64,000 nucleotides of DNA from an uncultured Methanomassiliicoccales archaeon (GTDB lineage Archaea > Thermoplasmatota > Thermoplasmata > Methanomassiliicoccales > UBA472): assembly GCA_963695345.1 (NCBI GenBank), contig OY968769.1:2446441-2510440 (forward strand), written 5' to 3'. The position numbers were made by a program, and so were the translations under genes. The notes beneath the pieces were generated by a model. The model did no database searches. It had not been told where the DNA came from and was given only the letters and a program-made list of their open reading frames with translations. Below are positions 920-61,275 of the stretch, piece after piece. Position 1 is the stretch's first letter. Every line of letters begins with the position of its first letter.

Positions 920-3900
920 CTTCTGGGTCAGTCCGGGTATGCCGGTCAGCTTGGTGATGGCCTCTTTTATGTGGGTCGAGGCGAGGGCAATCTCCATCTT
1001 GTGCCCCTCCACCTCCCAGGTCACGTTGTAGGTGCCGTTGGGGTCGTCGACGAAGTCCAGCTTCTTGGCCCTGGTCTCCGACATGATGTGCTCCTTCCAG
1101 ATCTTGAAGTACTCGGTGATCTTGGCGGGGGCGGTCACCTCCACCTTGACGAACTCCTCGACGTCCAGCTTCATGTCCTTTCGCATTTGCTGGATGCGTC
1201 GGATGATCTCCCTGGCGAAGCCCTCGGCCTCTATCTCCTGGGTTATCTCGAAGTCCAGGTAGACCTCGCCACCGCTGAACTTGGCCCCCACCACATCGTT
1301 CGGTAGGGACGAGGTGAACGAGACCATGTTGGGCTCGATCTTCACCAGCTGGCCTTCTATGCCGAGCGAGTACTCGCCCTTGTCTATGCTGTCCTTGATC
1401 TGCCTCGCCGGCCTGGATTTGAGCAGCACCGCTATCTTCGAGGACCATTGCCGGTAGACCTTGCCTATGGCGTGGGGGTTCGGGATCACGTTAAGGATCG
1501 TCTCCTCCCATTCCTGGCCCGGTTTTATGTACTGTACCGCTTTGGTGTTGGACTGGGCAAGCAGTATGTCGTCCAGCGCCATGATGGAGTCCATGGCCTC
1601 CTGGGTCGAGGCCTTGATGATGATGCGCTTCATGGGCCAGCGCAGCTTGACGTTGCGTGCCTGGCGCTCCCTGGTGATGATCTCCACCAGTTCCGCGCAT
1701 TCCTTCATGGAGGTCTCGAGACGCTCATCCACCTTGGTGAGGTCGGCCGTCGGCCACTCCAGCATGTGGACCGATCCCTTGGTCCCGTCCAGGTGCTGGT
1801 ATATGTCCTCGGTGGCGTGGGGGCAGAACGGCGCCAGCAACAGGTTCGTGGCCATTACCGAATCGAACAGGACCTTGTATGCGGCCAGCTTGTCCAGGTC
1901 GCCCTCCTCCTTCCACATCCTGTCCCTGATCAGACGCACGTACCAGCGGGAAAGGTCGTCCAGGACGAACTCCTCGATGGCCCGGCAGGCCTTGTGCAGG
2001 TCGTAGGTGTTGATGTTGCGGGTGACCTCATGCTTGAGCTTCTCGGTCTTGGAGATCAGCCAGCGGTCCTCGGAGCGCAGATGGCCCTTCAGCCGGTCAT
2101 AGTCCACCAGGGCCGGGTCGAACTTGTCGATGGCCATGTACTGGGTGGCGAAGTTGACCACGTTCCAGAAGACGTTGAGCATCTTTCTGGCGTTCTTCAC
2201 TCCCTCCGTCTGGAAGGCGATGTCCTCCCAGGGGGCGGACGACCGCAGCATGTAGAACCGGAGCGCGTCCGCGCCGTATTCAGCGATGACCTTGCTCGGC
2301 TCGATGACGTTGCCCTTGCTCTTGGACATCGGCTGTCCTGACGGGTCCAGCATCCAACCGTGCATGAGCACGCTCTCGTAAGGCGCCCGGCCGAAGGCTA
2401 TGCATCCGGCCGCCAGCTGGGAATAGAACCAACCTCTGGTCTGGTCCTGGGCCTCGGTGATCCAGCGTCCCGGCCACCAGCGGTCGAACTCCGTCCGCTT
2501 GCCCGGGAATCCCAGCTGCGCCCAGGAGGCCACCGCCGAATCGAACCATACGTCCAGGACGTCCGGGACCCGCCTCATGGTCTTGCTGCAGCGGGGGCAT
2601 TCGCAGGTCACCGAGTCGATCCATGGCCGGTGCAGCTCCATGTCCTTCCGGTAACCGTCCAGCTTTCTCCAGCTCGGCCACCGAGCCGACTACCTTGATC
2701 TCGCCGCAGGCGGCGCAGGTCCACACCGGGATCGGTATGCCCCAGTATCTCTGCCGGGAGATGCACCAATCCCGGGCGTTGAGCACCCAGTCGTACATGC
2801 GGGAGGAACCGGCCCAGTCCGGGGTCCAGCGGATCCTTTCGACCTCCTCGAGCATCAGGTTCTTTATCGGCGGTCACTTTGAGGAACCACTGCTGCGTGT
2901 TCCGGAAAATGACCGGCGTGTTGCATCTCCAGCAGTGTCCGAAACGGTGCTCGATGATGCCGCTCCAGAACAGGACGTTCTTCTCCTTGAGGTCCTCGAT
3001 GATCAATGGATTGGCCTTTTTGATATGCAATCCCCGATATTTCTCTCCGACATCGGAGTTGAACTTGCCGTTGGCGTCCACCGGGCAGAACGGATCGATG
3101 CCGAACTCCTTGCCCAGCTCGAAGTCCTCCGGACCGTGTCCGGGCGCGATATGCACCAGACCGGTGTTCTCGGGCTTCCACGGTCTTGGAGGGGATGACC
3201 TTATGCACCCACTTTCCGTTGACCTCCCTCTGGAAGGGTACCTCGTCGGCGAACGGCGATACATATTCCGTCCCCACCAGGTCGTCCCCCTCGATCGTTT
3301 CCAGGATATCGTACTTCTCCCAGCCGCCGATCTCCCGGATCTTCTCCACCAGCTCCTTCAGGACTATTACCGTCTCGGTCTCCCCGATCCGGCGGTAGCG
3401 GACCTTGTCATACTTGAAATCAGGATGGGCGGCCACCGCCATGTTCGCCGGCAAGGTCCATGGTGTGGTGGTCCATATGAGCAGGGATACCTTCTCATCG
3501 TTCCTCAGGGGGAACTTGACGTAGATCGAAGGGTCCTTCTCGTCCGAGTACTCGATCTCCGCCTCGGCCAGCGCCGTTTCGCAGCGGGGACATCCGGGCA
3601 GCACCCGGTTCGAAGTGACCAGAAGGCCCTTGTCATGGGCCCGCTTCAGCGTCCACCAGGCCGCCTCTATGTAGCTCGAGTTGATGGTGAGGTACGGGTT
3701 GTCCCAGTCCATCCAGACGCCCAGTTCGGAGAACTGCTCGTTCATCTTCTTCTGGAAGCCCAAGGCGAATTCCTTGCAGGTCCCGACGAAGCGGTCGATG
3801 CCGTATTCCTCGATCTCCTTCTTGTTCTTCACACCGATGGACTGCTCTACCTTGACCTCGATGGGCAGACCGTGCATATCATATCCAGGGGTGTCGGTGA

Positions 3901-4135
3901 CATTGAACCGCTGCATCCTCTTGAACCTGATGATGGTATCCTTGATGGTCTTGTTCCACGCCGTTCCCAGGTGGATGTATCCAGTGGTGTAGGGGGGACC
4001 ATCGACGAAGTAATAGTCAGGACCGCTCGCCCGGAGCTCCTTCGTCTTCTTGTAGGCATCGGTCTTGGTCCAGAATTCCCGGACCGCTTTCTCTAGTTTA
4101 GCAGGATTGTAACTGGCTTGGACTTGCTTTATCAT
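920..4135 (-). CDS. ileS: isoleucyl-tRNA synthetase (frameshifted in this assembly; 3' boundary uncertain)
   Basis: Start is MIKQVQASYNPAKLEKAVREFWTK, followed by HLGTAWNKTIKD, WTTTPWTLP, GHGPEDFELG, WCISRQRYWGIPIP and KMSKSKGN. The reading frame switches at about 3180, 2860 and 2690. No in-frame stop separates it from the downstream DUF835 gene. Confidence 0.85.
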
Positions 4136-21897: not shown

Positions 21898-22491
21898 ATG
21901 AATAAATTAACCTATGTATGCTGGATGATAGAAAGAGTGATTGTTCTAGGTCAAATAATCTAAAAAGGTAGAGGTCACGTGGGACCTCATACCTCGGTTT
22001 AGAAGGCGTTTGGAGTTGGTTGGGCCGGTGGCTCACCGCTCCTATGCGATCCTCTCCTCCTAAGAAAGTCCGCTTTTCGTTACCTCGAACGATTGCCAGT
22101 CTATCTTCGTCGGCTGGCTAACAAAGCCAATGCGTTGGTCGATATTTATGCTTTTCCGGCTTTCTTGGGTCGATTGGATTATGTTGACGTGTTTTTATTT
22201 GAAATATTTTCAGATCTGGCTTGTGAATCTGTGGATGGATTAACCATCCCGTTATTCGATAATTATAGTTACTATAATATTAATGTGTGCATACGAACGA
22301 AGAAAAACGATCAGAGCATTTGGACGATATCCATTGGTTGTTCAAGGCATATTTTCCAGATGCGCGGTCCTGACATGGCCTCGGCCGCTCAGATCAGGAG
22401 TCAATCCCTCTCCGATCGTCCGCCTGATCTTCTTCAATCTCGCGACCGCATGAAGGGGATGTGCAGAGATGGACGCGGCTCGGTCATGAGC

Positions 22492-23946
22492 TCAGCGGGT
22501 CACTCTGTCAATCAGTTGCTTCTCCTTGTTATAGACCGAGATCTCCAGAGGCATCTGACCGACTGCGAAGTGGGTGGCGCACCCGAAGCAGGGGTCGTAG
22601 GCCCGGAAGGCCATCTCCACCTTGTTCAGTATGTTCTCGTCCACCTTTCCTCCGTGTATCAGGCCCTTGGCGGCATCGCGGATGCTCATGCAGATCGCCG
22701 GATAGTTGTTGGTGGTGGCGACGATCATGTTGACGTTCCTGCACCAGGGCGTTCTCGTCCAGCCGGTAGTGGTGGATGAGCGTTCCTCTGGCCGCCTCGA
22801 CGATGCCGACACCCTCGCCTGGCTCTCCCGGCTTGTTCCGTACGTCGGTGCTGGTGATCTCCGGGTCGCTCGCCAGTTCGACGGCGCGTTCGGCCGCGTA
22901 CAGCAGCTCGATGAGCCGGGCCCAGTGGAAGACCAGGGTGCCATGCGCCGGCTTGCCCAGCATCGCGAACATCCGCTCGTACTCCTGCCTGAGCCAGGGG
23001 TGTGGCCATCCCGTCCGCGGCGTTCAGCCGGCCAGGGGACCGACCCTGTAGATGCCATTGTCCGGTCCGTCGGTGAAGCCGTTCCACCCGACCTTCCGCA
23101 GGAAGGGGAACTTGGAGTAGGTCCACTCCTCCGAGCGCTCCTCGATATGCTCGGCGTAGTCGGCCGCCCCGAACCGGGAGAACTCCTTGCCTGAAGGGTC
23201 GACCACCCGGACCTCGCCATCGTAGAAGTTGACGCGGTTCTTCGCGTCCACCATTCCCATGTAATAGGTCCTCATGGTGTAGGCGTCGCTCTTGATCATG
23301 TCCAGGTACTTCGGGTTGTCCAGCACCAGGTCGTGGAACAGCTGCAGCGTGAACTGGGCGAAGTTCACCGAGGACTTGGCCATCTCCAGTATGGCGAGTC
23401 GGATCTCCTCGCTGAGCGGCTTGCTCATCCCGCCGGGCAGTCCGCTGACCGGATGGGTGGCCTTACCGCCGATGATCTCGGTGATCTTCTGGCCATAGGC
23501 GCGGTGCTTGATCACCTCCTTGGCGACGTCCAGCCCCGCCTTCTCGATCACGCCCAGGATGTTGCGCTTCTCCGCCGGCGCATCCGGTCCGACGATGAAG
23601 TCCGGTCCGCCCAGATAGTAGAAGTGCAGCGTATGGTCGTAGATGATGTAGCCCATGTACTGGAGCTCCCTCAGCTTCTTCGCGGCCGAAGGCGGAGTCG
23701 ACCTGGAACGCCGCGTCCAAGGCCTTGACCGAGGCGTAGATGGTGGGCCACCGGGCACACCCCGCATATCCTGGTGGTGATGATGGGCATGAGCTCGGCT
23801 GGGCGGCCGACGCAGAAGGCCTCGAAGCCCCTGAGCTCAGGGACCTTGAGGTATGCGTTCTCCACCTCACCATCGTCGTTGAGGAAGATGGACACGCTGC
23901 CGTGCCCTTCCAGCCTGGTGATCGGGTCGATGTTGATCTCCTTCAT
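22492..23946 (-). CDS. mvhA: [NiFe] hydrogenase large subunit, Mvh-type (about 3 frameshifts)
   Basis: N-terminus MKEINIDPITRLEGHGSVSI...RICGVCPVAHHL. Internal GLPGGMSKPLSEE. C-terminus DPCFGCATH, the proximal Ni-binding motif. Confidence 0.85.
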
Positions 23947-23949
23947 TCT

Positions 23950-24950
23950 TTCATCACCTTCCTTTGCAGGATGGACGCCGGCAGGCTGTACATGTAGAAT
24001 ATGCCCACCGGGTCCTTGATCTGCGATATGAGCTTGGTCGACTTCCTCGTCAGTGTACGTTCCCGGCTCCTTGTCCAGGTTCAGGATGGAGGCCAGTGCC
24101 GTGATCATTCCCGCTCCCATGTCGGGCTGGTTGGGCGCCGCACCGCCGCAGCCGGTGCAGGGCATGTCCACCTTGAGGCACTGGGCTCCGCAGCCGCTGC
24201 GGGTGGCCATCCCCATGCATATGATGCCCTGCTCCATCAGGCAGCGCTCCGGTTCCGGGGTGATCTCGTACACCCGGTGGATGCTGGAGATCTTCTTGTT
24301 CTCCCGCTTGCGGGGGCATTGGTCGCACACCGCCGGCAACGGCGCCAGGACCGAGCCCTTGGGAGGCAGTTCGTTCTTCACGATAGCTTCCAACGCCTTG
24401 TTGATGAGAACGACCGGCGGCGGGCAGCCAGGCAGGAAGTAGTCGACATCGACGGTCTGGTCCAGCGTCCTGACGGTATCGTAGAACATCGGAATGTCGA
24501 AGCGTACCCTCCTTCACGGCGGTCTCGGCTCGGGATAATGCGCCGTCGTCCGTGAACTTCGTTGCGAGTAGACCTGCTCCAGTATGCCCTTGGCATCGCT
24601 GAGGTTCGCCAGTCCGGGCACGGAACCCTCGTTGGCGCATGATCCGAAGGCGACCAGGGTCTGGGATTTGGAGCGGAGCAGCTTCGCCATGTGCTCCTGC
24701 TCGCTGTTCCGTATCGAGCCGTTGAAGAACGTGATGTCGATGTGACCGTCCGGCATCGCCTCGACGTCCTTGTACTTGACGTCCATCGCCACCGGCCAGA
24801 AGACGATGTCCACCGACCTTGACGACATCGAGAATCGTCTCGTTGATGTCCAGGACGGCTATCTCGCAGCCGCCGCAGCTGGCCGCCCAGTAGAACGCTA
24901 CTCCTCAGTTTCCGGTCGATGTTCACTCCCCCTCTTGTGCTCTCGTTCAT
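23950..24950 (-). CDS. mvhG: [NiFe] hydrogenase small subunit, Mvh-type (frameshifts; boundaries approximate)
   Basis: MNESTRGGVNIDRKLR then AFYWAASCGGCEIAVLDINE (N-terminal cluster Cys), DIVFWPVAMDVKY...LVAFGSCANEGSVPGL, and FYDTVRTLDQTVDVDYFLPGCPPP. Confidence 0.8.
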
Positions 24951-26299
24951 GAGATATTCGTGCATCGCCTTGGCAGCACGCTTCCCTGCCCCCATGGCAC
25001 TGATGACGGTGGCAGCACCGGTGGCCACGTCACCGCCGGCGAACACGCCCTTCAGGTTGGTCCGTCCCTCTGCATCGACGATGATGGTGCCGTTTCGCGG
25101 ATTGGTCACCAGCCCCTCGGTGGTGCGCTGGATGATGGGGTTCGGCGTCTGGCCGATGGCGACGATGACGGTATCGGCCGGGATCTCGAAATCCGAACAG
25201 ACAATGGGCTTGACACCCTGCCTGCCCCTGTTCGTCCGGTTCTGTCAGCTCCATGCAGGTGCATCTCATGGACTTGACCCAGCCCTTCTCGTCACCGTAG
25301 AACTCGATCGGGGCGCTGAGGAACTTGCACATCAACCCTTCCTCCTCGGCGTTCTCGATCTCCTCCCTCCTGGCTGGCAGCTCGTTCCGCGAACGCCGGT
25401 AGTTCAGGCAGACCGTCGCCCCTAGCCTCATGGATATGCGGGCGCAGTCCATGGCCACGTTCCCTCCGCCGATGACGACCACGTGCTTGCCGATGCGGAT
25501 CGGGGTGTCCTTTTCCGGGAAGTCGTAGGCCTTCATCAGGTTGACCCGGATGAGGAACTCGTTGGCCGAGTAGATGCCGCCCAGGTTCTCACCGGGGCAT
25601 CCGGTCCACTGCGGGAGGCCGGCCCCGCTGCCGATGAATATCGCATCGTAACCGTTCTCCAACAGTTCCGGGATGGTGTGTATCCTCCCGATGAGATTGC
25701 CCAGTCGCAGGTCCACCCCCAGCTTCTGCACGTACTCGATCTCCTTCTGGACGATCTCCTTGGGCAGACGGAACTCCGGGATGCCATAGCTGAGCACACC
25801 GCCGGCCACATGCAGCGCCTCGAACAACGTCACCTCATGACCTAGTCTTGCCAGGTCGGATGCTGCCGTCAATCCCGCCGGGCCGGCACCGATGACCGCC
25901 ACCTTCTTTCCGGTTGGAGGCACCTTCTCCGGGATCTGCACTCCATGCTCCCTCTCCCAGTCGGCCAGGAACCTCTCGAGGCGTCCGATGTTGACCGGAT
26001 CGCCCTTCTTGCCCTTAATGCACTTCATCTGGCACTGCTCCTCCTGCGGGCAGACGCGTCCGCAGACGGCGGGAAGGGCGTTCTTTGACTTTATGATCGC
26101 AATGCCTTCGGCGTACTTTCCCTCAAGGATGCAGTCGATGAACTCCGGGATAGGCACGTCCACGGGGCAGCCTTTCCGGCATTGGGGGTTCTTGCACTTG
26201 CAGGCACCGGGCCGCCTCTTTCAGGGCCATCTCCTCGGTGTAGCCAAGAGCGACCTCGCTGAAGTTCTTGACCCGCTCGTCAGGCTCCTGCCTCGGCAT
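24948..26299 (-). CDS. nfnB: glutamate-synthase-small-subunit-like NADPH oxidoreductase (SudA/NfnB homolog; frameshifts near 26190 and 25215)
   Basis: MPRQEPDERVKNFSEVALGYTEEMALKEAARCLQ..., then VAVIGAGPAGLTAASDLARLGHEVTLFEA, GGNVAMDCAR, and C-terminus VFAGGDVATGAATVISAMGAGKRAAKAMHEYL. Confidence 0.8.
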
Positions 26300-26351
26300 C
26301 GGCACGTCCTCGTCCGTCGTAGCCCGGGCGCGTCCTCTCTTCTTCTCAGGC

Positions 26352-27195
26352 TCAGTACCGTTCACACTTGCAGCCTCCGTTCGTTTCCCAAAGCATGGAA
26401 CTCAACCTCTCTTCCGGGAGCATGGTGCGCTGGCGTTTGATGAGCTCGTCGAAGTTGGTCTCGTGCCCGTCGAACTCGGGGCCATCCACGCAACCGAACA
26501 TCATCTTGTCGCCCACGGTCACACGGCAGACACCGCACATGCCCATGCCATCGATCATGATCGGGGTCAAGGTCACAATGGTCGGGATGCCGTAGGGGCT
26601 GGGTCATCTCGCTCACCTCTTTCATCATCACCACCGGTCCCATGACCACGCACCGGTCGAATCTCTCCGTCTGGAGGAGATCGTTCAGGAAAGCCAATCC
26701 CATTTTCCCCGCAGTCCCATCGTCCGAGGCGATGTGGACCTGATCGCTGTTTGCCATGGCCTCCTCCTTCATGAAAAGCAGATCGCTGCTCCTGCAGCCA
26801 AGGACCGTAGTCACATGGTTTCCTGCCGCCTTCAAGGCCTTGGCCTGAAGCAGCAACGGGGCGATCATTATGCTTCCGCCCACGCACAGCACCTTCCCGA
26901 AAGTTCCTGATCTCGGAAGGATTGCCCAACGGTCCGGTGACGTTGAACAGGCAGTCGCCCTGGTTGAACGTGCCCAGCTCCTTGGTGGTCTTGCCGACCT
27001 CATGGAAGGCGAATGAAACCGTTCCTTTCTCCGCGTCGTAATCACAGATGGTAAGGGGTACTCTCTCCCCTCCCGTTTTCGCTATGACGATCAGGAATTG
27101 CCCCGGCTGAGCTTTGGCGGCGATCTCCGGGGCCTCGACCTCGAACAGGGTCATCTTGTAGCTGAGCGCCTTTTGGACAATATCTTGTATGTCAT
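26352..27195 (-). CDS. nfnA: sulfide-dehydrogenase beta / NfnA-like FAD-[2Fe-2S] subunit (frameshifts, one in an AAAA homopolymer at about 27170)
   Basis: MTYKILSK then (frameshift) ALSYKMTLFEVEAPEIAAKAQPGQFLIVI...GKVLCVGGSIMIAPLL...GMGMCGVCRV...DGPEFDGHE. SD-like GGGAGG precedes the ATGATG start. Confidence 0.8.
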
Positions 27196-28410
27196 CATTC
27201 CGCCTCCCTTTGTAGCGGTATCTTTGGCATACGGCATGGTTGCGATCCTCTCGAAGAAAGCCTCGAACTTCTGGCTGAATTCGCCCTCACATCTCGGCGA
27301 GAGCTCGTGTATCTCGAACCGATCGAGCAATCCTGCTTCTTCAGAAAGGCTGTGAGGACCTCGAGCTGCCTTTCTGAGGTGTCTCTTCCCTGCTGGAGCT
27401 TGCAGTCCTTCGCCGAGCAGACTACCGCCATGACGCCGTCGAAGCCCTGCTCGAAGGCGCTAACCACCTGCACCGGGTCCATTCCCTTGAAGCAAGGTAC
27501 CTCCATGACAAGAGCGTTCTTCCCTTGGAGCATCTTCTCCGGATCGTCCAGAGCTGAGTACTCCGACCACTGGCAGCTGAGGATCAAGATGGCAGGTCTG
27601 CCGTCTCTGGCCCTTATCCTCTGTGCCGCGGCTCCATAGGATGCGATGAGATCTTTGAACTCATATCCTTTGACGTGGATGGCGTTGTGCGGACAGACCA
27701 GCTGACAGGCACCACAGCCCATGCATTTCTCGGCATCCGTGGAAGGCGTGGAGAACGGTTCTGACTTGATGGCTCCGTAGGGGCATACGAACACGCATTT
27801 GCCGCAACCGACGCACTCACTGTTGTTCCTGACCACCTTTCGAGAATACTTCACGACCTTCAGCGCATCATCGGGATAGCCGAGCTGCTTGATGACCGCC
27901 TCGCCAAGTAGCATGCGCCTTGTCCCGATCCCGGTGCCTTCCTTCATACGGCAGAATCCGTCATGGCACTGGATAGAGATGATGTTCTTCACGCCCGACT
28001 TCAGGGCATTGAAAATGAAATCCGTCGGGATCCTTCCGGCGCATGGGATGCGCAAGGGCAGATAACCCTCCACCTTCAGGCCCCTGTCCGGCAAGGATGT
28101 CCTCGACCTCGCCGCTGCTGGGCGAGTTGCCCCTGCACATCATAACCAGCGTATCCGCGCATAGGTTCTTTCGTGCCGATATGACGTAATCGAGCAGGTC
28201 CCCATAATCGTAGTATGACATCTCGATGGCCGAGACGGGACAGGCACTATAGCATATCCCGCAGACCTGACACTTTTGGATGTCTATGCTCAGTTTACCG
28301 CCATCGGGCTGACGGTCAATGGCCTCGAACGGACAAAGCGAGAAGCAAACCGTGCATCGGCTACAGAGGTCTTGGTCAATTCTAACGGCTGCAAGGCAGT
28401 TATCGTTCAT
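27195..28410 (-). CDS. mvhD: polyferredoxin with two MvhD/FlpD-like domains (hydrogenase iron-sulfur subunit family; frameshift near 28080)
   Basis: Four CxxCxxCxxxCP ferredoxin motifs (CSRCTVCFSLCP, CQVCGICYSACP, CVGCGKCVFVCP, CMGCGACQLVCP). These are interleaved with two MvhD-like Cys-containing modules (LRIPCAGRIP...IQCHDGFC and ILSCQWSEY...EVPCFKG...VVCSAKDC). A TGATGA double stop overlaps the nfnA start. Confidence 0.7.
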
Positions 28411-28780
28411 ACCTGATATCCCCCTCAGGGTCGAAGAAATTCTGTGGCCGGGACATGTAATCCAGACCGTAGAGGGCGCATAGACATCAACTTATTTATT
28501 GGATAGCTTTGGTCCATCCGCCGTTCACTGCAAAAGAGTCCTCGCGGAATCTTTACAGTAGCAGAGGTTGGATAATGGGTAGATTATATAATGAGTACTA
28601 TCGAAGGTTCGTGAATGGTTTAGGTTACATTATTATGTGTCGAAATATTTCCTGGATATGGTAATAAAAATATATGCGTGGCTAAAATTAAATAGACGCA
28701 TAAACATTAATTATATGAAAATTGAGACATCTATCGCGTAATTGCCGTAAGGAATCATTCAAAGCACCGTTTTTGAATAG

Positions 28781-28792
28781 ATATTATATAAG
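28781..28792 (+). promoter_or_regulatory. putative archaeal TATA box for gdhA
   Basis: atattatataag sits about 40 bp upstream of the gdhA ATG, within an AT-rich divergent intergenic region. Confidence 0.3.
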
Positions 28793-28829
28793 AAAAATTC
28801 CATTCCGAATCTTGTAGGAGCGTCATTAG

Positions 28830-30169
<1,340 letters not shown>

Positions 30170-47135: not shown

Positions 47136-50039
47136 ATGAAACTAAGGACCAAGACCATCATCACATTGATCCCGATGGCCATTCTGTTCGTTCTCCTGAC
47201 GAACTCCCTAGGTTCCAGCATAATCGTCGGAGAAGCATTAAAAGAGGACAATGCCAGGGCTGAAGTGGCATCGAAAGAGATCAATCTCGGGCTTGATGAC
47301 AAGGTTTCCCAATTGGATATGTTCTGTGCCGACTGGGGCATTTGGGACGAAGCCTGGTACTTCGTCCAATTTCATAACTCTAGCTTCGCCGAGCAGGTCC
47401 TGAACCCAGATTCGATGTCGGCCGGCGATCTAGGCGCCCTCTTGTTCTATAATGTGACCGGAAAATTTGTCGATGGACTCGCCCTCGATAAGGTCAATGG
47501 CACTGTAATCGAGATTCCTGTAGACCTGCTTTCGATTATCGAGAATGATACGACCTTGCATTTGAGGACGGACATCGAAGATCATCGATTGGGAATTCTT
47601 TCCCTGGGGAACGGCACTGCCATGTTCTCATCAAGACCTGTGGTCAAGACCAGTATGATAGGTCCGCCGATGGGCAGCATCATCATGATCGTCTATGTTG
47701 ACGAGGATACGATATCCTCATTGTCGGCGCTGTATGGGGCAAAGCTCTCGCTAGGTTCAGACGTCCTGGACCAGGAGATGTTTGGCAACCTGGGAACCGA
47801 CAATGTGGTTATTGATATGCTGAACGATTCCACCATAGCTGCCTCCTGGTTTGTCCAGGACATCTATGGCCAGCCAGCGCTATCCCTAACGATTGACGTC
47901 CAAAGAACCGCCTTTTTGAACGTCCAGGATTCGACAGTATACATGAGCATCGCCGTTTTAGCGGCAGGCCTGGGCAATTTCTTTCTCATGCTGGTTTTCG
48001 TGGATAGGGGGATCCTATCGCACCTTCACAAGGTCATGGATGACATAAACGGGATTGGAACCGGAAAAAGGAAGGAAAGGCGGGTCCGGGTTATGGGGGA
48101 TGATGAGCTGAGGGACCTCAGCATACAGGTGAACGTCATGTTGGAGTCCCTTGACCGTTCGGACAAAGAAATGGTCCATAAGGAGAAGAAGTACAGGACC
48201 ATAGTGGAGGGCTCTTCGAACGCCATACTGATCGTAGGAAGGGAAGACCAGAGGATAATCGATGTGAACCCTGCCTTCCTTAAGATGACTGGAAAATCCG
48301 TGGAAATGCTTAACACCCTCAAGATCGGGGACGTCCTCATCACTCCGGAACAATGGTCCAGACCATCATCCCCTGATTCTTCCGCGGAAGAAGGGTACGG
48401 GTATATTATCCACACCGATTCGTCAACCTCGGAGGTGGAATTGAGCAGGTCCTCTCTTCTGCTGGATGGGACTGAGGTGGACTGCTATATCGCCAAGGAC
48501 GTGACCGAAAGGAGAAAGGCCGAGAGGGAGAAGGAATCGATACTGGACCAGCTCCAGAGGGCCAATGAGAAGTTGGAGATCACCCTGAGGTCCATCGCCG
48601 ACGGTGTGATCACCATCGATGGCCAGGGAAACATCATTCTCGGTAACCGGGCGGCGGAAGAGATGATGGGCCGAAAGATGGATTCTATCACTGGCCATAG
48701 GATCAAGGAGGTCTTCGACCTTCCCGACAACCAATGGAAAACGATCACATCGATCACTTCCGGCGGTCCATTGAGGAACGAGACCCGGAATCCCGACGGT
48801 CTCAACTGGCTAATGGAGTACAACTTCACCACCTTGAGGGGTGAGAAGGACGAAGCGATAGGCAAGGTGTTCGTGTTCCGGGACATCTCGCAAAAGGTCA
48901 GGGCGGAGATCGCCGAGGCCAACGCCGACAGGCTAGAATCGATAGGTACATTGGCGGGAGGCATTGCCCACGATTTCAACAACCTGATGACCTCGGTCAT
49001 GGGCGAGATGTTCTTGCTGCGAGCGGAGATAGATCAAAGCGAGAATTCGATGAAAAGGTCGTTGGGCCGTATCGATGAGATGGAGACCGCCATGGACCGT
49101 GCCAAGTTCGTCGCCCAGGAACTGCTTTCCCTTTCAAAGGGCGGTTCGCCCATCCAGAAGCCTACGGTAGTAAAGGGGCTTCTAGAGGACACCGCCAGGC
49201 TCGCCTTCACCGGATCGAACCTGAACTGGATCTTGGAATGCCCCGAGGACCTGTGGGCCGCGAACATCGATTCCGGACAGATGAACCGGGCCTTCCTCAA
49301 CATACTCTTCAACGCCCAGGAGGCCAGCCCTACCGCGAGCACGGTGAGGATGGTCGCCCGTAATTTCGAAGGCGTCCCGCCCGGTCTAGCCAAAGGTAGA
49401 TATGTTGTACTCGATTTCATCGATCAGGGGGTCGGTATTCCGCCTGAGGTCTTACCAAGGATATTCGATCCTTACTTTACCACAAAGGAAACCGGTTCGG
49501 GCCTGGGCATGACAGTCACCTACAGCACGGTAAAGCGTCATGGCGGATCCATCGAGGTCGCATCGGAGGTAGGGAAAGGCACCCAGGTCACTATCTATAT
49601 CCCGGCGGTCATCGACAAGGTCGAGCCTCAGCCTCAGCACCTGAAGGCGATCAACGGTTCCGGTCGCATACTCATCATGGACGACGAGCAGTTCATCCTC
49701 GATGTAACTGGAGAGGTCCTTCAGGAGCTGGGTTATGAAGTCGATGTGGCCGCTGATGGGTTGGAGGCCTTGAAAAAGTACGAGAAGGCCATTAACGAAG
49801 AAAAACGGTTCGACGCGGTCATAATGGACCTTACCATCCCTGGTGGGATGGGGGGTAAGGAGACTATCTCCCGTCTCTTGGAAATGGACCCGAGGGCAAA
49901 GGCGATCGTCTCATCGGGATATTCGAACGATCCGGTCATGGCGAACTTCCGCGATTATGGATTCGCCGGGGTTGTGCCTAAGCCATACAGGATAGAGGAG
50001 CTCTCGCATACGCTCAAGAACGTTCTGGCCGGAAAATGA
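47136..50039 (+). CDS. hybrid sensor histidine kinase (extracytoplasmic sensor domain, PAS x2, HisKA, HATPase_c, C-terminal REC)
   Basis: Intact 967-aa ORF. TM1 then an about 250-aa extracellular region then TM2. Then PAS, IAHDFNNLMTSV (H-box), GSGLGMTV (G2), and RILIMDDEQFILD...IMDLTIPGGMGG (receiver). Confidence 0.85.
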   Translation: MKLRTKTIITLIPMAILFVLLTNSLGSSIIVGEALKEDNARAEVASKEINLGLDDKVSQLDMFCADWGIWDEAWYFVQFHNSSFAEQVLNPDSMSAGDLGALLFYNVTGKFVDGLALDKVNGTVIEIPVDLLSIIENDTTLHLRTDIEDHRLGILSLGNGTAMFSSRPVVKTSMIGPPMGSIIMIVYVDEDTISSLSALYGAKLSLGSDVLDQEMFGNLGTDNVVIDMLNDSTIAASWFVQDIYGQPALSLTIDVQRTAFLNVQDSTVYMSIAVLAAGLGNFFLMLVFVDRGILSHLHKVMDDINGIGTGKRKERRVRVMGDDELRDLSIQVNVMLESLDRSDKEMVHKEKKYRTIVEGSSNAILIVGREDQRIIDVNPAFLKMTGKSVEMLNTLKIGDVLITPEQWSRPSSPDSSAEEGYGYIIHTDSSTSEVELSRSSLLLDGTEVDCYIAKDVTERRKAEREKESILDQLQRANEKLEITLRSIADGVITIDGQGNIILGNRAAEEMMGRKMDSITGHRIKEVFDLPDNQWKTITSITSGGPLRNETRNPDGLNWLMEYNFTTLRGEKDEAIGKVFVFRDISQKVRAEIAEANADRLESIGTLAGGIAHDFNNLMTSVMGEMFLLRAEIDQSENSMKRSLGRIDEMETAMDRAKFVAQELLSLSKGGSPIQKPTVVKGLLEDTARLAFTGSNLNWILECPEDLWAANIDSGQMNRAFLNILFNAQEASPTASTVRMVARNFEGVPPGLAKGRYVVLDFIDQGVGIPPEVLPRIFDPYFTTKETGSGLGMTVTYSTVKRHGGSIEVASEVGKGTQVTIYIPAVIDKVEPQPQHLKAINGSGRILIMDDEQFILDVTGEVLQELGYEVDVAADGLEALKKYEKAINEEKRFDAVIMDLTIPGGMGGKETISRLLEMDPRAKAIVSSGYSNDPVMANFRDYGFAGVVPKPYRIEELSHTLKNVLAGK

Positions 50040-50303
50040 CCTTTGAATCCTGTGTCGGTCAATGCGTGCCATCCTCCTAGGAATAGGGCTGAGCAGGTTG
50101 AGAAGGAACACCGAATCCTCAAGAATCGAGCAACGGCAATCCATTAGTCTCGCTATTCAATCATGGAAACTGACATATGTTAGCCCTCCGAGCGCGTTTG
50201 GAAATCATTTCTCGAAGGCTGGATACAGACGTCGAGAATCCCGCTCAGGGTAGCATTCAAATGTAATGGCCGCATACCCCGGGCAAAGCGAGTTGAAGCG
50301 GTC

Positions 50304-50876
50304 TTGAGCAACGACACCACTGCTAATCCAGCCCCCCTTGGGCTGATGGGATTCGGACTGACGACCATACTGTTAAGCCTGAGCAATGCCGGCTACTTTG
50401 CGCTGGGAGCAGCCATCCTGACCATGGGATTGTTCTTCGGCGGAGCGGCCCAGATATTGGCTGGCATCATGGAGTACAAGAAAGGGAATACCTTCGGAAT
50501 GACCGTGTTCTGCAGTTTCGGGTTCTTCTGGATTGTTGTCATCAGCACCATACTGGCCCCAACGCTCGGACTGGTGGCCAAGGCCGAGACCGCCCAGGCA
50601 ATGGCATGGCTCTTCTTCCTCTGGGGTGTCTACGTAGTGTATCTCACGATCGGCACTCTCCGTACCAACCGGATGATGCAATTCACCTTTGCCGCCCTCG
50701 CACTTGTGCTATTCCTGCTGTCCGCTGCGGATGCCCTAGCAAGCACCGACATCAAGAACCTGGCCGGTTACGTCGGCATCCTCGCCGGTGCCGGAGCGGT
50801 GTACATGGCTGCTTCCCACGTCCTCCAGGAGTCCCTGGGTAAGAGCGTGCTACCACTGTTCGCGGTCAAAAAGTAG
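50304..50876 (+). CDS. satP: acetate/succinate uptake transporter (GPR1/FUN34/YaaH, SatP family)
   Basis: NPAPLGLMGFGLTTILLSLSNAGY, the family signature, with 6 TM helices. Intact. Confidence 0.85.
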   Translation: MSNDTTANPAPLGLMGFGLTTILLSLSNAGYFALGAAILTMGLFFGGAAQILAGIMEYKKGNTFGMTVFCSFGFFWIVVISTILAPTLGLVAKAETAQAMAWLFFLWGVYVVYLTIGTLRTNRMMQFTFAALALVLFLLSAADALASTDIKNLAGYVGILAGAGAVYMAASHVLQESLGKSVLPLFAVKK

Positions 50877-51087
50877 GCTGAACCAGAAAACCCGATGATA
50901 TTATGAGGCCAAATTCGGCCTCTCTCTTTCTTCTTTCTCACTTCGGTTCTCTTACAACATTGCTGTCGATCTGACGGATTGAATGATTTGTTTTCATGAA
51001 CTCCCTTCCCAGTTCTCTTCCAGTCATCTCAATTCATCGAGAGGTGGTAAAATCATCCCCATCCGTTGATGATTACTAGGGGGCCCA

Positions 51088-51351
51088 TCATTCAGGCTTC
51101 TTGGAGTAGCCCGTGTCTGTGGCAATGGCAGTCGGGGCAACGAAGTAGACCGAGTACTCTCGATCTCCCGCCAGTTGGTTGGCGAGGATCTCCACCTCCG
51201 ATTCTGTCGAGGCGACCGCGATGACCTGCTGGTCCAGGACAGCTATCCAATCCCTGGCATGATCCTGCATGAGGTCGATGTAATTCGCCTTGAACCATTC
51301 ATCATTGGTCAGATCTGCCTCGCTCTCGATCATCTCATCATCTTCTGCCAT
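51088..51351 (-). CDS. small acidic hypothetical protein (DUF5678-like)
   Basis: 87 aa. ...DWIAVLDQQVIAVASTESEVEILANQLAGDREYSVYFVAP resembles the DUF5678 pattern. Weak assignment. Confidence 0.4.
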   Translation of the reverse strand: MAEDDEMIESEADLTNDEWFKANYIDLMQDHARDWIAVLDQQVIAVASTESEVEILANQLAGDREYSVYFVAPTAIATDTGYSKKPE

Positions 51352-51567
51352 ATCGATCTACCTCTGTGTTTCTATTGCATTCTCTGGCATTTATTCTTTC
51401 TTAGCAATGCCATTTCGGTAGCGTTCTCGAACGGAGTTGGACCAGACTCTATTGGATAGGCAATATGTACTGTCGATTCCGAACAAACTGTTTTAAAAAG
51501 ATCGGATCGGAGGTCCGGACCAAGTTACAATTACCACCCGCTCTGACGCGTTTCTGGAGGCACAACC

Positions 51568-51883
51568 ATGAACGAATATGAGAAGACCCTAAATGAGATC
51601 AAAGCCGCCATCGGAATCGTGCCTGGGTTCATGAAAGCATTGCCAGAGGATGTCCCTGATCCATAATCGGCCCCTTTGGAAGAGATACTCCTTGGGAGAG
51701 ACAGAGATGCCGACCAAGTACCGAGAACTAATGGGGCTATCGGTCGCAGCCAACATTAAATGCTCCTACTGTGCGTTCCTTCACACCGCCATGGATGGCC
51801 GGGGCCAACGATGCGGAGATCGCAGAGACCACGTTCCTGGCCAGTCTGACCGCGAGATGGAGCACTATGCTGCATGCCCAATA
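51568..51883 (+). CDS. carboxymuconolactone decarboxylase (AhpD-like) family protein, frameshifted
   Basis: MNEYEKTLNEIKAAIGIVPGFMKALPEDV..., then after a frameshift LWKRYSLGETEMPTKYRELMGLSVAANIKCSYCAFLHTAM (the CxxC..H AhpD motif). Confidence 0.6.
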
Positions 51884-52474
51884 ATACGAAATCAAGACCT
51901 TGGAGAAAGAGGGGGAACAGATAGGGGAAATTCCTGTCCAATAATAAGTGAAAATCTGTTCCTTTGTTTCCCGATTATCCAGAGGAGAATAGTGTTGGCC
52001 TCACCTGCGGGGCCTCCATTCCACATAGTTACCATGGGTCCGGTCCGGACTGACCTTGCACAGTTCCTTTCTGGCGGCCGAACAGCTCCGGAAGAACAGG
52101 CAGCTGCTGCAGGACCGTACCACTACAGGTTCTGAGTCAACTCGATGACCGGTTCTTTTCAAATGCCTCGGAGATGCTTCCACGTTCTCGCCCTCTTGGA
52201 GGGCAAAAATCGGCTCTCTAGGTATATGCGGTCTTTTCGCCAATTATCAGCAACAATAATAGCAGGCCATCTCTTGGGCCGGTACTGTGCAATCTGAATG
52301 TTCTGGGGGCTCCTGGGCCTCGGAATCCGTTCCATCGCACGAGAGCTGAAAAGATGTCGCATTCATTGGACCAGATAGCCACTTATTGGCTTTCTATCTC
52401 AGTTCAATGAATGGGAGGGGTGCGGGATCTCGATCGGATGGAATGAGTTCATTCAGCCAATTTGGCGATGTTCA

Positions 52475-54370
52475 CTATCCTCTTATTCCAGAGTGGGGCG
52501 CCCGCATGATGAACCGAGCCCCGCTGCCCGCCAAGCCTTCTTCCGATATCCTTATGCCGGTAATGGAGAGGATCTCGTGCGATAGGAACAGCCCGAAACC
52601 ATGGTCCTTGCCTGTCCCCCTTATGAACAACTTCTTCCTCAACGAGGCGGAGACACCTGTTCCATCGTCCTCGCATGCAATTGCCTTCGTTCCATCTCTC
52701 TCCTCTAGGTAGAAACGTATCCGGGTCGTCTTCCCGCCGTGCTTGATGGCGTTATCGACCAGATTATGGAACACCTTGACTATCAGAGGATCTGCGAACA
52801 TCTCAACGCTCGATGGAACGTCGTTCTGCAACGTTATCTGTCCCAGATGGACCTCGTCCGCGCTCTTGTCCACCAACGCCCTGACGTTCTGCCATGCGGG
52901 GATGTGCTCTCCGATGTCCTCATATTCCTTGGTGAACTGGATCATGGAGGATATGCGTTCCGCGGCCGTTTTGGCCTTGATAAGGCGTTGTTCGAAGGAA
53001 ACGCTTACCGACTCGTTCTCCATAAGTGCCAGATAGCCAGAGAGCGCGACCAGCTGGTTGTTGATGTCATGCCGGGTGATGCTCGACAAAAGGTTGAGCT
53101 TACGATTCGCCAAATGAAGGGCAACCTCTATGTTCTTCCTTTGAGTGATATCGTGGGAGAAGATGAGGACCCCGCTTTCCCTCTCGCTCGGACCCGGCAC
53201 ATAGGTGAAGACAGATAGGAACCAGTGCTCACTTCCGGAAAAGATGACCAGGTCCTCGAACTCCATCGGCCCGTCCGAATTCACCGCCTTCTTGATGCGG
53301 TCCAGGTAGGTCGTCCCCTTCTCTTCGAACAGGTCTTTGATGTTGCGCCCAATAAGATCCTCAGGTTTGCTGTTAAGATATCCGGCGGCGATCGAGTTCA
53401 TCAGGATCAGGCGCCCTTCCAGGTTCCAGTAGCCCAGACCGATCCCGGCGTTGTCAAGGATCGCGCGGTGCATGACCTCACTATCTCTCAGATTGCGCTC
53501 GGCTTCGATCCGGTCCTTGATGTCGATCCCGAGCCCCATGAAGAACGATGAGTCCTTGGTGTCGAACCGTTTGCCGGTGAGCAGGTAAGGGACCTCGGAT
53601 CCATCCTTCATGACCAGCGGGGCCTCGATGCTCGCCTGCCCCACCTCCATCAAGCTGTTGATGGCTGCCAGGACGGCGTCCGAATTGTCAGGAAGATGCC
53701 AGGATAGGACATGCTTTCCGATCATCTCGTCGGCGGTGTAGCCGCTCACTTCCTGATGGTTCTTGTTCCAACGGACCAGGCGAAGTGATTCCGCCTCGTA
53801 CAGGTAGAATATCCCGGGTAGGCTGTCCATGAGGGACTCCGAGAAGGCCATTTCCTTTCCGAGCTCCTCCTGGGCCCGGACGATCTCTTCCAACTGGGCC
53901 TGAAGTTCCACTTCTGCCGATTCCAATTCCTCATTGACCACGCGCAGTTCCTCGTTATGGCTTCGCATCGATTCCTCCGTCCGGTATCGTCTCACCGCCG
54001 CGAGGATATGATGGCGGAGTTCCGCGAAAAGAATCTCTGGCTTGTTGTCCTTCCGGAGATAAGCGTCGGCTCCGTTGTTCAGGGCATCGATGACTATCTC
54101 CTCTCGCCCTTTCCCTGTCAATAGGATGAAGGGCGTCCTGTCGTTCTTGCTACGCAATGATTTGAGGAACATCATGCCGTCTTCTTCGGGCATCTGATAG
54201 TCAGAGACTATGGCATCGTATCCGCCCCGCGAAAGTGCTTTCCTGGCCTCCTTTACCGAACCGCACATCTGGACCTCGATATCCCCCGGATGGCCCAGAT
54301 ACTCCTTGATCAAGGTACATATGTCTGGTTCATCGTCGATTACCAGTATCTTGACCTTGGAGGACGCCAT
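52475..54370 (-). CDS. REC-PAS-PAS histidine kinase (receiver-first, methanogen-type HDINN H-box)
   Basis: KILVIDDEPDICTLIKEYL...IVSDYQMPEEDGMMFLKSLRS (REC), PAS repeats, ITRHDINNQLVALSGYL (H-box), HNLVDNAIKHGG...DDGTGV...GFGLFL (HATPase). Confidence 0.85.
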   Translation of the reverse strand: MASSKVKILVIDDEPDICTLIKEYLGHPGDIEVQMCGSVKEARKALSRGGYDAIVSDYQMPEEDGMMFLKSLRSKNDRTPFILLTGKGREEIVIDALNNGADAYLRKDNKPEILFAELRHHILAAVRRYRTEESMRSHNEELRVVNEELESAEVELQAQLEEIVRAQEELGKEMAFSESLMDSLPGIFYLYEAESLRLVRWNKNHQEVSGYTADEMIGKHVLSWHLPDNSDAVLAAINSLMEVGQASIEAPLVMKDGSEVPYLLTGKRFDTKDSSFFMGLGIDIKDRIEAERNLRDSEVMHRAILDNAGIGLGYWNLEGRLILMNSIAAGYLNSKPEDLIGRNIKDLFEEKGTTYLDRIKKAVNSDGPMEFEDLVIFSGSEHWFLSVFTYVPGPSERESGVLIFSHDITQRKNIEVALHLANRKLNLLSSITRHDINNQLVALSGYLALMENESVSVSFEQRLIKAKTAAERISSMIQFTKEYEDIGEHIPAWQNVRALVDKSADEVHLGQITLQNDVPSSVEMFADPLIVKVFHNLVDNAIKHGGKTTRIRFYLEERDGTKAIACEDDGTGVSASLRKKLFIRGTGKDHGFGLFLSHEILSITGIRISEEGLAGSGARFIMRAPHSGIRG

Positions 54371-54541
54371 TTGGTCTCGTATCATCCAACGAATGAATAA
54401 TGGTTCTTGCGAGACTATCAAAACTGACATTCAAGAATCGAAGAGTAAACACCCTGTCAAAGAATCATAATCCACGCTCTGGACCTCAACGCTTGAAGCG
54501 GAGTCCGATATTAATGCGGTAGCTAATATATACCGCAATAT

Positions 54542-58273: not shown

Positions 58274-58480
58274 ACAACCGAACAGGGATGCTGAGATCAT
58301 CTACCATATAATGCTGGATGTTCTCGTTCGGGCGTTTAACGAACACCATTCCCGTCGATCGCCTTCTACCAAGTGGATCGCGTCCCCTGGAACATTGTAT
58401 TGATATCAATCTACCAGAATTTTTTCTTAGATAAGAATTATTATATCTGGAATGAACATACGGGTGTAGAGGGATGCACT

Positions 58481-59728
58481 ATGCCAAGTTCTTTTGTAAA
58501 GGATGCGCTAGCTAATGCTGGCGTAAAACAACCAGCCAATGCAAGCATGGGAAATCAACAAGCACCGGCCCAGCCAGCCTATCAACCGGCAGCTCCGGTC
58601 ATGAGCGCCTCCGATGAGGAATTGCTCAGGATAGCGGCTTCGTTGGACGTTTGTATCAAGATCGTCGGCTGTGGCGGTGGCGGAAGCAACACCATCAACC
58701 GCTGTGTCGATGCCGGAATAGCTGGCGGACAGCTCTGCGCTATCAACACGGATGCCAAGCACCTGTTGACCATCAGGGCACCGAAAAAGATCCTGATCGG
58801 AAAGTCCAAGACCCGCGGGCTGGGAGCTGGAGCTAGGCCCGAGGTCGGAGAGGAATCCGCGCGCGAGAACGACAGCGAGATCAGGGATTTCTTGGCCGGC
58901 GCTAACATCGTATTCGTCACCGCGGGAATGGGCGGCGGCACCGGGACCGGCTCGGCGCACTACGTCGCCGGTATCGCCAAGGAGCAGATCAGGGCGCTAA
59001 CCCTGGGCATCGTCACCCTGCCGTTCAAGGCAGAGGGAACGATGCGTATGGAGAACGCACTGTCCGGGCTGAACAAGCTGAGGCAGGTGTGCGACACGAC
59101 CATCGTCGTACCGAACGACAAGCTTCTGGAAATGGTCCCGAAACTGCCGGTCGAAGCTGCCTTCAAGGTGGCGGACGAGGTCCTGATGCAGACCATCAAG
59201 GGACTCACCGAGATCATCACCAAGCCAGGCCTGGTCAATCTCGACTACGCCGATATCCAGACCGTCATGAACGAGGGCGGTGTGGCATTCGTCGGTATCG
59301 GTGAAGGGAACACCGACAACGATGACCGCGTGGGAGCGGCCGTGCACGAGGCGCTGACCTCCCCGATGCTGGGCGAGGTCGACCTGAAGGGAGCCAAGGG
59401 CGCCTTGATCCGTGTTGTCGGAGGGCCCGACATGACCGTAGGAGAGGCCCAGAGGGCTGCGGAGATCGTCACCAAATCCATCAGCGAGAGGGCCCGGATC
59501 ATCTGGGGATGCTCGATCGAGCCAGAACTGACCGGCACCATCAAGATCCTGCTGATCATCACCGGGGCCAAGAGCCAGTACATGCTCGACGGCCGCGGAA
59601 TGAACGGCATGAACACCCAGCCTTCGAGGGGAGCGCCTCAAACCCAGTATGCGCGCAACCCCGCCCCCCAACCGCAGCAGTACCAGCAATCAAGACAGCG
59701 CGACGATGATGTAGACTTCGTGCGCTGA
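58481..59728 (+). CDS. ftsZ: cell division GTPase FtsZ
   Basis: [16 protein letters not shown]...[19 protein letters not shown] (tubulin GGGTGTG), [14 protein letters not shown]-rich N- and C-terminal extensions. Confidence 0.9.
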
Positions 59729-61129: not shown

Positions 61130-61275
61130 CGCGTAAAGGAATCAGCATGATACATGGCCATGCTGGAAACAACGAATAATTCTGATTTTCTAAGGAATCA
61201 AATCTGATTCAGGGACAATCAGTCTTAAAGCAGCAAAATTCGTCGCCTTGACGATCTTAAAGGGTTTGACATAAA

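Follow-up and report, generated by a model that had tools for sequence, protein, structure and literature searches.

An operon encoding an Mvh-type [NiFe] hydrogenase, NfnAB and a double ferredoxin-MvhD adaptor in uncultured Methanomassiliicoccales

Introduction

Reviews of flavin-based electron bifurcation describe four classes of flavoprotein, among which the NfnB class contains the NfnAB transhydrogenase only (PMC5861303). [NiFe] hydrogenases of the Mvh type are found with MvhD in the MvhADG-HdrABC complex (group 3c; 5ODC, 9SW2-6), and the canonical hdrA-mvhDGA cluster is the only one listed for cultured Methanomassiliicoccales in a comparison of their genomes (PMC4153887). Here we describe an operon in a 64,000-nucleotide (nt) stretch of DNA from an uncultured Methanomassiliicoccales archaeon (contig OY968769.1; hereafter the window), in which the genes mvhG and mvhA of an Mvh-type hydrogenase are preceded by nfnA and nfnB and by the gene for a double ferredoxin-MvhD fusion protein, the adaptor.

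The operon resembles MvhADG-HdrABC in its homologous MvhA and MvhG (expectation values (E) of 1e-108 to 1e-116, with matching L1 and L2 motifs), in its MvhD-type [2Fe-2S] module and, in its relatives, in the HycI-type protease gene that follows the hydrogenase genes. In addition, its nearest relatives in Bathyarchaeia have kept their linkage to hdrCB. It differs in that no hdr gene is present in the window or within 10 kilobases (kb) in 19 related loci, that MvhD, there a separate protein of 140 amino acids (aa), occurs here twice inside a 403-aa ferredoxin fusion, and that the flavoprotein encoded by the operon is NfnAB and not HdrA. Compared with NfnAB/NfnSL (4YLF, 5JCA) and NfnII (5VJ7), both Nfn subunits are full length and highly similar. 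They keep the ligands for one [2Fe-2S] and two [4Fe-4S] clusters, the flavin adenine dinucleotide (FAD) motifs and the arginines for the 2'-phosphate of the reduced form of nicotinamide adenine dinucleotide phosphate (NADPH). In contrast to the known enzymes, nfnAB lie between the MvhD adaptor gene and the hydrogenase genes, and the GGGVG motif is replaced by GG(S/G)IM in the operon NfnA, a position at which NfnII deviates too.

The group 3b sulfhydrogenases SHI and SHII (alpha-beta-gamma-delta) share with the operon the proposed H2/NADP(H) chemistry and a PyrK-like FAD/[2Fe-2S] subunit, HydG, which is distantly related to NfnA (1e-11). However, their large subunit is distant from that of the operon (about 1e-30) and they have neither a GltD-like subunit nor MvhD modules, whereas the operon has no AsrA-like beta subunit. 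HdrA2, a fusion of HdrA and MvhD, carries a ferredoxin domain plus MvhD unit (NF040770) like that of the adaptor, and HdrA proteins with NfnB/GltD inserts in ANME-1 (PMC9012536) and type III HdrA (PMC12054007) are a precedent for mixing Hdr/Mvh parts with an NfnB module. Unlike these fusions, the adaptor lacks the thioredoxin-reductase-like HdrA core, and the NfnB of the operon is a separate protein with its own NfnA partner and a hydrogenase in the same operon. In NiFe-HydABCSL of Acetomicrobium mobile (7T2R), an Mvh-like module sits on a NuoF-like bifurcating unit, which makes this a second kind of bifurcating flavoprotein to which such modules are joined. The proposed complex would be similar to NiFe-HydABCSL and to the NADP-specific [FeFe] enzyme HytA-E in that a hydrogenase is joined to a bifurcating flavoprotein with NAD(P) and ferredoxin as substrates, and the large subunit of the former (7t2r_D) is the best solved match of the window MvhA. 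Both enzymes differ from it in having a NuoF-like Bfu flavoprotein with flavin mononucleotide (FMN), instead of NfnB with FAD, and in having no MvhD. Searches of the openly accessible full-text literature found no paper that describes an Mvh-Nfn operon in either Methanomassiliicoccales or Bathyarchaeia.

Results

The five-gene operon lies on the minus strand from 28410 to 22492, with all genes co-directional and their limits set by indel-corrected alignment to an intact homologue. The first gene (27195-28410) encodes the adaptor, a protein of about 403 aa with two tandem units, each consisting of a ferredoxin domain for two [4Fe-4S] clusters and an MvhD/FlpD module; in Pfam these appear as two Fer4 dicluster domains and two FlpD (MvhD) modules. 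It is followed by nfnA (26365-27195), for an NfnA-like small subunit of about 276 aa with FAD and [2Fe-2S] sites (DHODB_Fe-S_bind, the PyrK/NfnA type), and by nfnB (24923-26367), for an NfnB-like large subunit of about 478 aa with two [4Fe-4S], FAD and NADPH sites (Fer4_20 and Pyr_redox_2, the GltD/NfnB type). Each of these three genes is spread over three frames. The last two genes, mvhG (23943-24926, in four frame segments) and mvhA (22492-23946, in four or five), encode an MvhG-like [NiFe] small subunit of about 327 aa (Oxidored_q6) and an MvhA-like large subunit of 483 aa (NiFeSe_Hases). Neighbouring genes abut or overlap, because the aligned gene limits coincide or cross. The gene content, coordinates and tight co-directional packing given in an earlier note on this DNA were thus borne out by Pfam and by homologue alignment. 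That note hinted at the heavy frameshifting only in its wording 'corrected MvhA', and passed over the loss of most of the protease gene hycI. A homology search for hdr and hyp genes and for a second nfn copy found none within the 64-kb window.

To place the operon among its relatives, one genome per species of GTDB was scanned. This gave 407 loci with a close MvhA relative, and the best 80 of these were examined, 19 of the Methanomassiliicoccales type and 61 from Bathyarchaeia. The order adaptor-nfnA-nfnB-mvhG-mvhA-hycI was found in all 15 Methanomassiliicoccales-type loci with enough flanking sequence, while the other four end inside the operon and are consistent with the same order. The GltD-like gene, whose conservation beside the hydrogenase the earlier note had left to be checked, is thus present in every such locus (15/15). 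Because 15 other species-level genomes have the same five genes in an identical order, the operon is far beyond chance. Except in two assemblies with failed gene calling, the junctions in these loci overlap by 1-14 nt or leave a gap of at most 11 nt, and no hdr homologue was found within 10 kb in any of the 19. In locus L001, on a 2.55-Mb Methanomassiliicoccales chromosome (OW818644.1), the operon is intact, with an adaptor of 403 aa, NfnA of 276, NfnB of 478, MvhG of 328, MvhA of 483 and HycI of 164 aa. The database relatives of the corrected MvhA (483-487 aa, 78-94% identity) are all from metagenomes or metagenome-assembled genomes (MAGs), and the named ones belong to Methanomassiliicoccales or Bathyarchaeota; protein and cluster searches found no cultured species among the close matches to the operon proteins. 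The arrangement is conserved and widespread, not rare. To call it uncommon for an archaeon, as had been done, is misleading, since public data contain over 1,100 proteins of the adaptor family and the adaptor-NfnAB trio occurs in Bathyarchaeia as well.

Next, we assigned the hydrogenase. The corrected MvhA contains the L1 motif RICGVCPVAHH and the L2 motif RAYDPCFGCATH, which match the published definitions of the Mvh motifs (L1 ICGxCxxxH and L2 AYDPCxxCATH; PMC6085437). In a PDB search its top match was the [NiFe] hydrogenase large subunit 7t2r_D (E 4e-117), with the VhuA/MvhA chains 9sfi_g, 5odc_F and 9sw2_F at 1e-108 to 1e-116 (9sfi_g 3e-116, 5odc_F 2e-112), the group 3d NAD-reducing HoxH (5xf9_D) at 2e-100, and the alpha subunits of several SHI entries, the group 3b sulfhydrogenase, at only about 1e-30. 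The top NCBIfam models were VhuA for MvhA (1e-130) and VhuG (NF045875) for MvhG (1.3e-58), both below the curated cutoff. The group 3b model HydD reached just 1.6e-20 for MvhG, and the group 3b models HydA and ShyA were far below cutoff for the large subunit. The window MvhG is 79-84% identical to intact relatives, and no Fer4_22/AsrA-like gene was found in the operon by Pfam or by comparison with L001. A group 3b assignment, the outcome that the earlier note had named as contrary to its proposal, is ruled out by these PDB (about 1e-30 versus 1e-108 to 1e-117 for Mvh/Vhu-type and related subunits) and NCBIfam scores. Judged by its motifs and homologies, the hydrogenase is probably of the Mvh type (group 3c-like), with HoxH of group 3d not far behind in score, and it is not of group 3b. 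The MvhD [2Fe-2S] protein of group 3c is represented by the two FlpD modules, which are fused to ferredoxin domains and not free-standing. The association of group 3c with HdrABC has no counterpart in gene linkage, either in the window or in the 10 kb around the 19 related loci.

The closest relatives of MvhGA (74-78% identity) were found in Bathyarchaeia, in hdrC-hdrB-mvhG-mvhA-hycI clusters, some of which are preceded by hdrA-mvhD-hdrA-mvhD. hdrB lies beside mvhGA in 49 of the 61 Bathyarchaeia loci. This synteny is the strongest evidence for the Mvh type. Its comparison with that of Methanomassiliicoccales places the same hydrogenase clade with Hdr in one phylum and with Nfn in the other. 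On gene order, the hydrogenase is a movable Mvh-type module, exchanged between Hdr and Nfn contexts. One Bathyarchaeia locus (L027, 3231-7191, minus strand) also has a group-3b-like hydrogenase, divergent beside hdrC-hdrB-mvhG-mvhA. Its small and large subunits have 245 and 442 aa, and its third subunit is a fused Fer4_22 plus FAD/NAD plus 2Fe-2S protein of 638 aa.

We then compared the flavoprotein subunits with characterised Nfn enzymes, to which they are about 50-57% identical. NfnB matched PDB entries over its full length, namely 4ylf_B (Thermotoga maritima NfnB, 1e-159), 5jca_L (Pyrococcus furiosus NfnI, 2e-150) and 5vj7_A (the large subunit of P. furiosus NfnII, 1e-147), and scored 600 bits with TIGR01316, over the cutoff. 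It keeps the N-terminal [4Fe-4S] cysteine motifs of T. maritima NfnB and its YRRS segment, which concerns the 2'-phosphate of NADPH. NfnA matched 5jca_S (P. furiosus NfnI small subunit, 7e-80), 4ylf_A (T. maritima NfnA, 2e-72) and the NCBIfam model NF004862 (5e-104), and retains the [2Fe-2S] motif DGMGMCGVCRV...C and the FAD motifs. Because both NfnB and NfnA are closely homologous to crystallised NfnAB, the flavoprotein is not merely of a GltD-like fold; the Nfn identity of the two subunits is stronger than had been claimed. By every sequence criterion save the NAD motif, the flavoprotein is NfnAB.

At that dinucleotide motif, the window NfnA has GGSIMIA, compared with GGGVG(V/I)A in NfnI and T. 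maritima NfnA. All 17 operon-linked NfnA and the Bathyarchaeia trio have GG(S/G)IM(I/V/T/A)A, while about 118 of the 123 representative clusters in this family have the fifth-position glycine. When the NAD-domain segment of the window NfnA was searched against 1.84 billion cluster representatives (50%-identity clusters), the nearest unrelated cluster was only 48% identical. P. furiosus NfnII deviates at the same motif (GAYTG) and is reported to have no NAD-dependent activity (PMC6405883). Since a sister clade with free-standing genes shares the change, it would be a hint of an altered NAD(H) site and not a marker of coupling. We have accordingly downgraded the Gly-to-Met change as a specific marker of adaptor-linked enzymes.

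Most adaptor-linked NfnA proteins also have a short extra C-terminal tail with two cysteines, GGC[KR]C..R (about 26365-26400 in the window; also in L004-L020, L082 and L084). The NfnA proteins of T. maritima, P. furiosus, L001 and L003 end without this tail.

The adaptor belongs to a family of 1,125 proteins at E <= 1e-10, nearly all of about 400 aa and of the same double architecture. Across 36 homologues from two phyla its 24 cysteines do not vary. They form four CxxCxxCxxxCP motifs and two MvhD sets of four cysteines each, and the corrected window protein has every one of them. These ligands predict that the adaptor holds four [4Fe-4S] and two [2Fe-2S] clusters. The best solved matches of its AlphaFold (AF2) model (mean predicted local distance difference test score 74) were the MvhD chains 5odh_D, 5odc_D, 8rvu_F and 7bkb_F, with target template-modelling scores of 0.74-0.82. 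Furthermore, its second half matches the C-terminus of HdrA2, with ferredoxin and MvhD (NF040770, 3e-49). In Bathyarchaeia, the adaptor-nfnA-nfnB trio is conserved without adjacent hydrogenase genes, and hypF-hypC-hypD lie 2-3 kb downstream of it. Gene order in the two phyla shows the adaptor and NfnAB as a conserved core, co-inherited in both. In another Bathyarchaeia locus (L086, 204-9037), free-standing nfnAB with the Met variant of NfnA lie about 1.5 kb from a cluster on the opposite strand. The products of that cluster are a polyferredoxin-FlpD protein of 802 aa, an HdrA-like-FlpD fusion of 776 aa and a [NiFe] large subunit.

The copy of the operon in the window is interrupted. Three-frame translation and tblastn with intact homologues as queries showed that none of the five genes has an intact open reading frame (ORF), each being spread over 2-5 frame segments. 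With the intact operon of L001 as DNA reference (79.5% nucleotide identity), we found 15 extra and four missing single bases, one 4-nt indel and one 8-nt indel. Extra bases outnumber missing ones, and a location in homopolymers is not obvious. After frame correction there was no internal stop in nfnA, nfnB, mvhG and mvhA (about 1,570 codons); the only stop codon falls in the C-terminal tail of the adaptor, where the alignment is poor. The metal-binding motifs are all intact in the corrected proteins. A codon-usage hidden Markov scan of the whole window counted 55 same-strand frame switches, 45 of which fall within the roughly 20 kb from 15.8 to 36.5 kb. This block includes a DUF255 thioredoxin-domain gene, the glutamate dehydrogenase gene, a Band7 region and a LemA region, all unrelated to the operon. 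From 36.5 to 64 kb there were almost no switches, and intact ORFs reach 1,243 aa. Similar errors occur in related long-read metagenome assemblies (the glutamate dehydrogenase gene of L003 and a G7 run in L009). These results suggest a long-read assembly in which this block (15800-36500) was left locally unpolished or had low coverage.

In every relative, hycI encodes 164 aa and lies 22-54 nt 3' of mvhA. In the window about 390 nt of this maturation protease gene are absent, and only a remnant of its 3' end (22345-22416, minus strand; about 25 codons) is left, in which residues 140-164 alone are alignable. The alignment is weak (E 0.25-1.5, 40-44% identity) yet consistent from five different queries, and its position was matched by DNA alignment with L003. 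The window MvhA keeps the 25-residue C-terminal extension after the CATH motif, the part that a HycI-type protease removes. The uninterrupted frames and the maturation protease gene of a functional operon are thus both missing from the window. The genes downstream of the remnant (DUF255) are unlike those in L001, so this may be the site of a rearrangement breakpoint.

Upstream, the operon is separated from a divergent gene by an AT-rich intergenic region (28411-28829, without strand assignment), in which, reading the sequence directly, we noted TATA-like boxes and a ribosome-binding site, GAGGGGGA (28426-28419). It may be the promoter region of the operon. The divergent gene is gdhA, for glutamate dehydrogenase (28830-30169, plus strand; Pfam ELFV_dehydrog, 4e-77), which is frameshifted and split into two frames in the window as judged by tblastn with the L001 protein (gene at 2594-3928). 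A divergent gdhA also adjoins the operon in L001, L003, L008, L012, L014, L018, L020, L031 and L064. In four relatives, a thioredoxin-reductase-like gene lies upstream of the operon, and a distant homologue of it (32% identity) lies upstream of the Bathyarchaeia adaptor-nfnAB trio. Glutamate dehydrogenase and the thioredoxin-reductase-like protein are likely users of NADPH; on that assumption, these neighbours fit a role in NADPH supply.

Elsewhere in the window, the region 47136-63834 encodes PAS/histidine-kinase/receiver hybrid proteins of 967, 650, 1,243 and 852 aa, together with FtsZ (58373-59728) and a 305-aa 4Fe-4S protein (60209-61129). Orthologues of FtsZ (91% identity) and of the 4Fe-4S protein (73% identity) lie 4-6 kb downstream of the operon in L001, so that the synteny around it is rearranged in the window genome. 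Across the whole window we found no tRNA gene and no Rfam family at the gathering threshold. An in-frame nfnB-mvhG fusion in L009 (7581-10004, an 807-aa ORF) was considered as Rosetta-stone evidence and rejected as a probable assembly error, since the two genes are joined at a G7 run in a long-read MAG, at a place where every other genome has a stop codon.

Discussion

We propose that the five proteins form one soluble complex that carries electrons from H2 to NADP(H) through the FAD of NfnB, probably with ferredoxin as the third partner, and we give this reading a probability of roughly 40%. The coupling put forward in the earlier note is plausible, and it withstands the sequence-based objections named there, as MvhA does not fall in group 3b and the GltD-like gene is conserved beside it. 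MvhA and MvhG, as homologues of known hydrogenase subunits, would split H2. The electrons would then exit via the adaptor, which has the cysteine ligands and the MvhD fold, and MvhAG would dock on one of its MvhD modules through MvhG, because docking is the only known role of MvhD (PMC5861303, PMC6085437). The adaptor would pass the electrons by physical contact to the close NfnAB homologue, and the FAD of NfnB would exchange hydride with NADP(H) and reduce NADP+. The likeliest reaction would be H2 + reduced ferredoxin + 2 NADP+ -> 2 NADPH + oxidised ferredoxin, in a reversible manner, which is the Nfn reaction with H2 replacing NADH. Its role would be to keep NADPH reduced for biosynthesis in archaea that live at a few pascals of H2.

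The H+/H2 couple has a potential of -414 mV at 1 bar and of about -296 mV at 10 Pa, compared with about -370 mV for NADPH. At low pressure its potential is close to that of physiological NADH, and it cannot reduce NADP+ without help. A ferredoxin-driven version is thermodynamically sensible because the potential at low H2 is too positive to keep NADPH reduced, and the deviant NAD motif of NfnA weakly favours the version in which H2 takes the place of NADH. The complex is further supported by the observed homology of its parts, their cofactor ligands, the operon structure, the co-inheritance of the adaptor with NfnAB and the exchange of the hydrogenase.

Several points weigh against this proposal. 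All operon genes are frame-broken in the window and hycI is truncated. The adjacency of the genes may reflect no more than co-regulation. The adaptor may contact either NfnA or NfnB, so that the proposed choice of third substrate (ferredoxin, NAD or none) follows from thermodynamic reasoning. In addition, the change from Gly to Met or Phe is weak evidence for a loss of NAD(H) binding by NfnA, and a sister clade of NfnA in Bathyarchaeia, whose nfnAB can stand alone (L087), also has Met or Phe.

The same complex may instead be non-bifurcating. It would then be a plain H2:NADP+ oxidoreductase, in which the adaptor replaces free ferredoxin at the distal [4Fe-4S] cluster of NfnB or feeds both branches, and a functional analogue of the NADP-coupled group 3b enzymes made of other parts. 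The ferredoxin domains of the adaptor are of the kind that dock to FeS proteins, and its duplication could allow it to reach two entry points. Among the PDB matches are many FeS flavoenzymes in which a GltD/NfnB-like module simply lets NAD(P)H electrons in, such as glutamate synthase, dihydropyrimidine dehydrogenase and formate-dehydrogenase fusions. However, a one-branch enzyme would not need NfnA, in which the FAD and [2Fe-2S] motifs are strictly kept, and by the established potentials H2 at environmental pressure (about -300 mV at 10 Pa) would need a second donor of lower potential to hold NADPH at about -370 mV. Some Bathyarchaeia relatives, furthermore, already have a group-3b-like hydrogenase (L027). 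We regard this alternative as unlikely.

It is more doubtful that the operon encodes two separate, co-transcribed enzymes, an ordinary NfnAB and an Mvh hydrogenase whose adaptor docks to HdrABC encoded elsewhere. hdrABC genes are often unlinked from mvh genes (PMC6085437), and the standard model for cultured Methanomassiliicoccales is that they use MvhADG-HdrABC (PMC4153887). The identity of NfnAB to characterised Nfn enzymes and the resemblance of the second half of the adaptor to the HdrA2 C-terminus also agree with two enzymes. Against this, nfnA and nfnB lie between the adaptor gene and mvhGA with tightly packed junctions, mostly overlapping stop and start codons, and the Bathyarchaeia adaptor stays with nfnAB and not with the hydrogenase or hdr. 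Moreover, in Methanomassiliicoccus luminyensis a canonical hdrA-mvhD-mvhG-mvhA cluster stands by itself and its MvhD is a single-domain protein (PMC4153887), and the close matches to the operon include no cultured species.

An explanation of a different kind, which we hold to be improbable, is that the locus is a decaying cluster of pseudogenes in this organism, with five frameshifted genes and a lost maturation protease. About 21 frame-breaking indels over 5.9 kb and the reduction of hycI to a 25-codon remnant would be expected of such decay, and the long intact ORFs elsewhere in the window indicate that sequence quality is not uniformly poor. However, real decay with 20 indels should bring stop-creating substitutions too, whereas nfnA, nfnB, mvhG and mvhA are without a nonsense codon once corrected and keep their metal motifs. 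The frame switches also strike unrelated neighbours, and related long-read metagenome assemblies show comparable errors. Since four of the five genes have no nonsense codon and the indels extend across about 20 kb, poor sequence is likelier than gene decay, and the operon is probably intact in the organism and badly sequenced here. We reject pseudogenisation confined to the operon, because the switches span about 20 kb of unrelated genes and four of the five corrected genes are free of stops.

Returning to the complex of hydrogenase, adaptor and NfnAB, a wider reading may be put forward more tentatively. The complex would be the first hydrogenase with an NfnB-type flavin as its bifurcating or confurcating centre, would make NADPH from H2 and reduced ferredoxin, and would be the main biosynthetic NADPH route in environmental Methanomassiliicoccales and, with the hydrogenase shared, in many Bathyarchaeia. 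If so, HdrA and the NuoF-like Bfu proteins would be joined by a third kind of partner for Mvh modules, and the NfnB class would gain its first member besides the NfnAB transhydrogenase. A hydrogenase wired to NfnAB, if true, would in itself widen that class. The small size of the operon (5.9 kb) and its intact copies in complete MAG chromosomes open the hypothesis to direct tests. Metagenome surveys that take the presence of MvhA to mean Mvh-Hdr bifurcation would miscount these lineages if the proposal holds. It would also bear on how NADPH is supplied at trace H2 in H2-dependent methylotrophic methanogens, and equally in the very abundant Bathyarchaeia of soil, peat and sediment.

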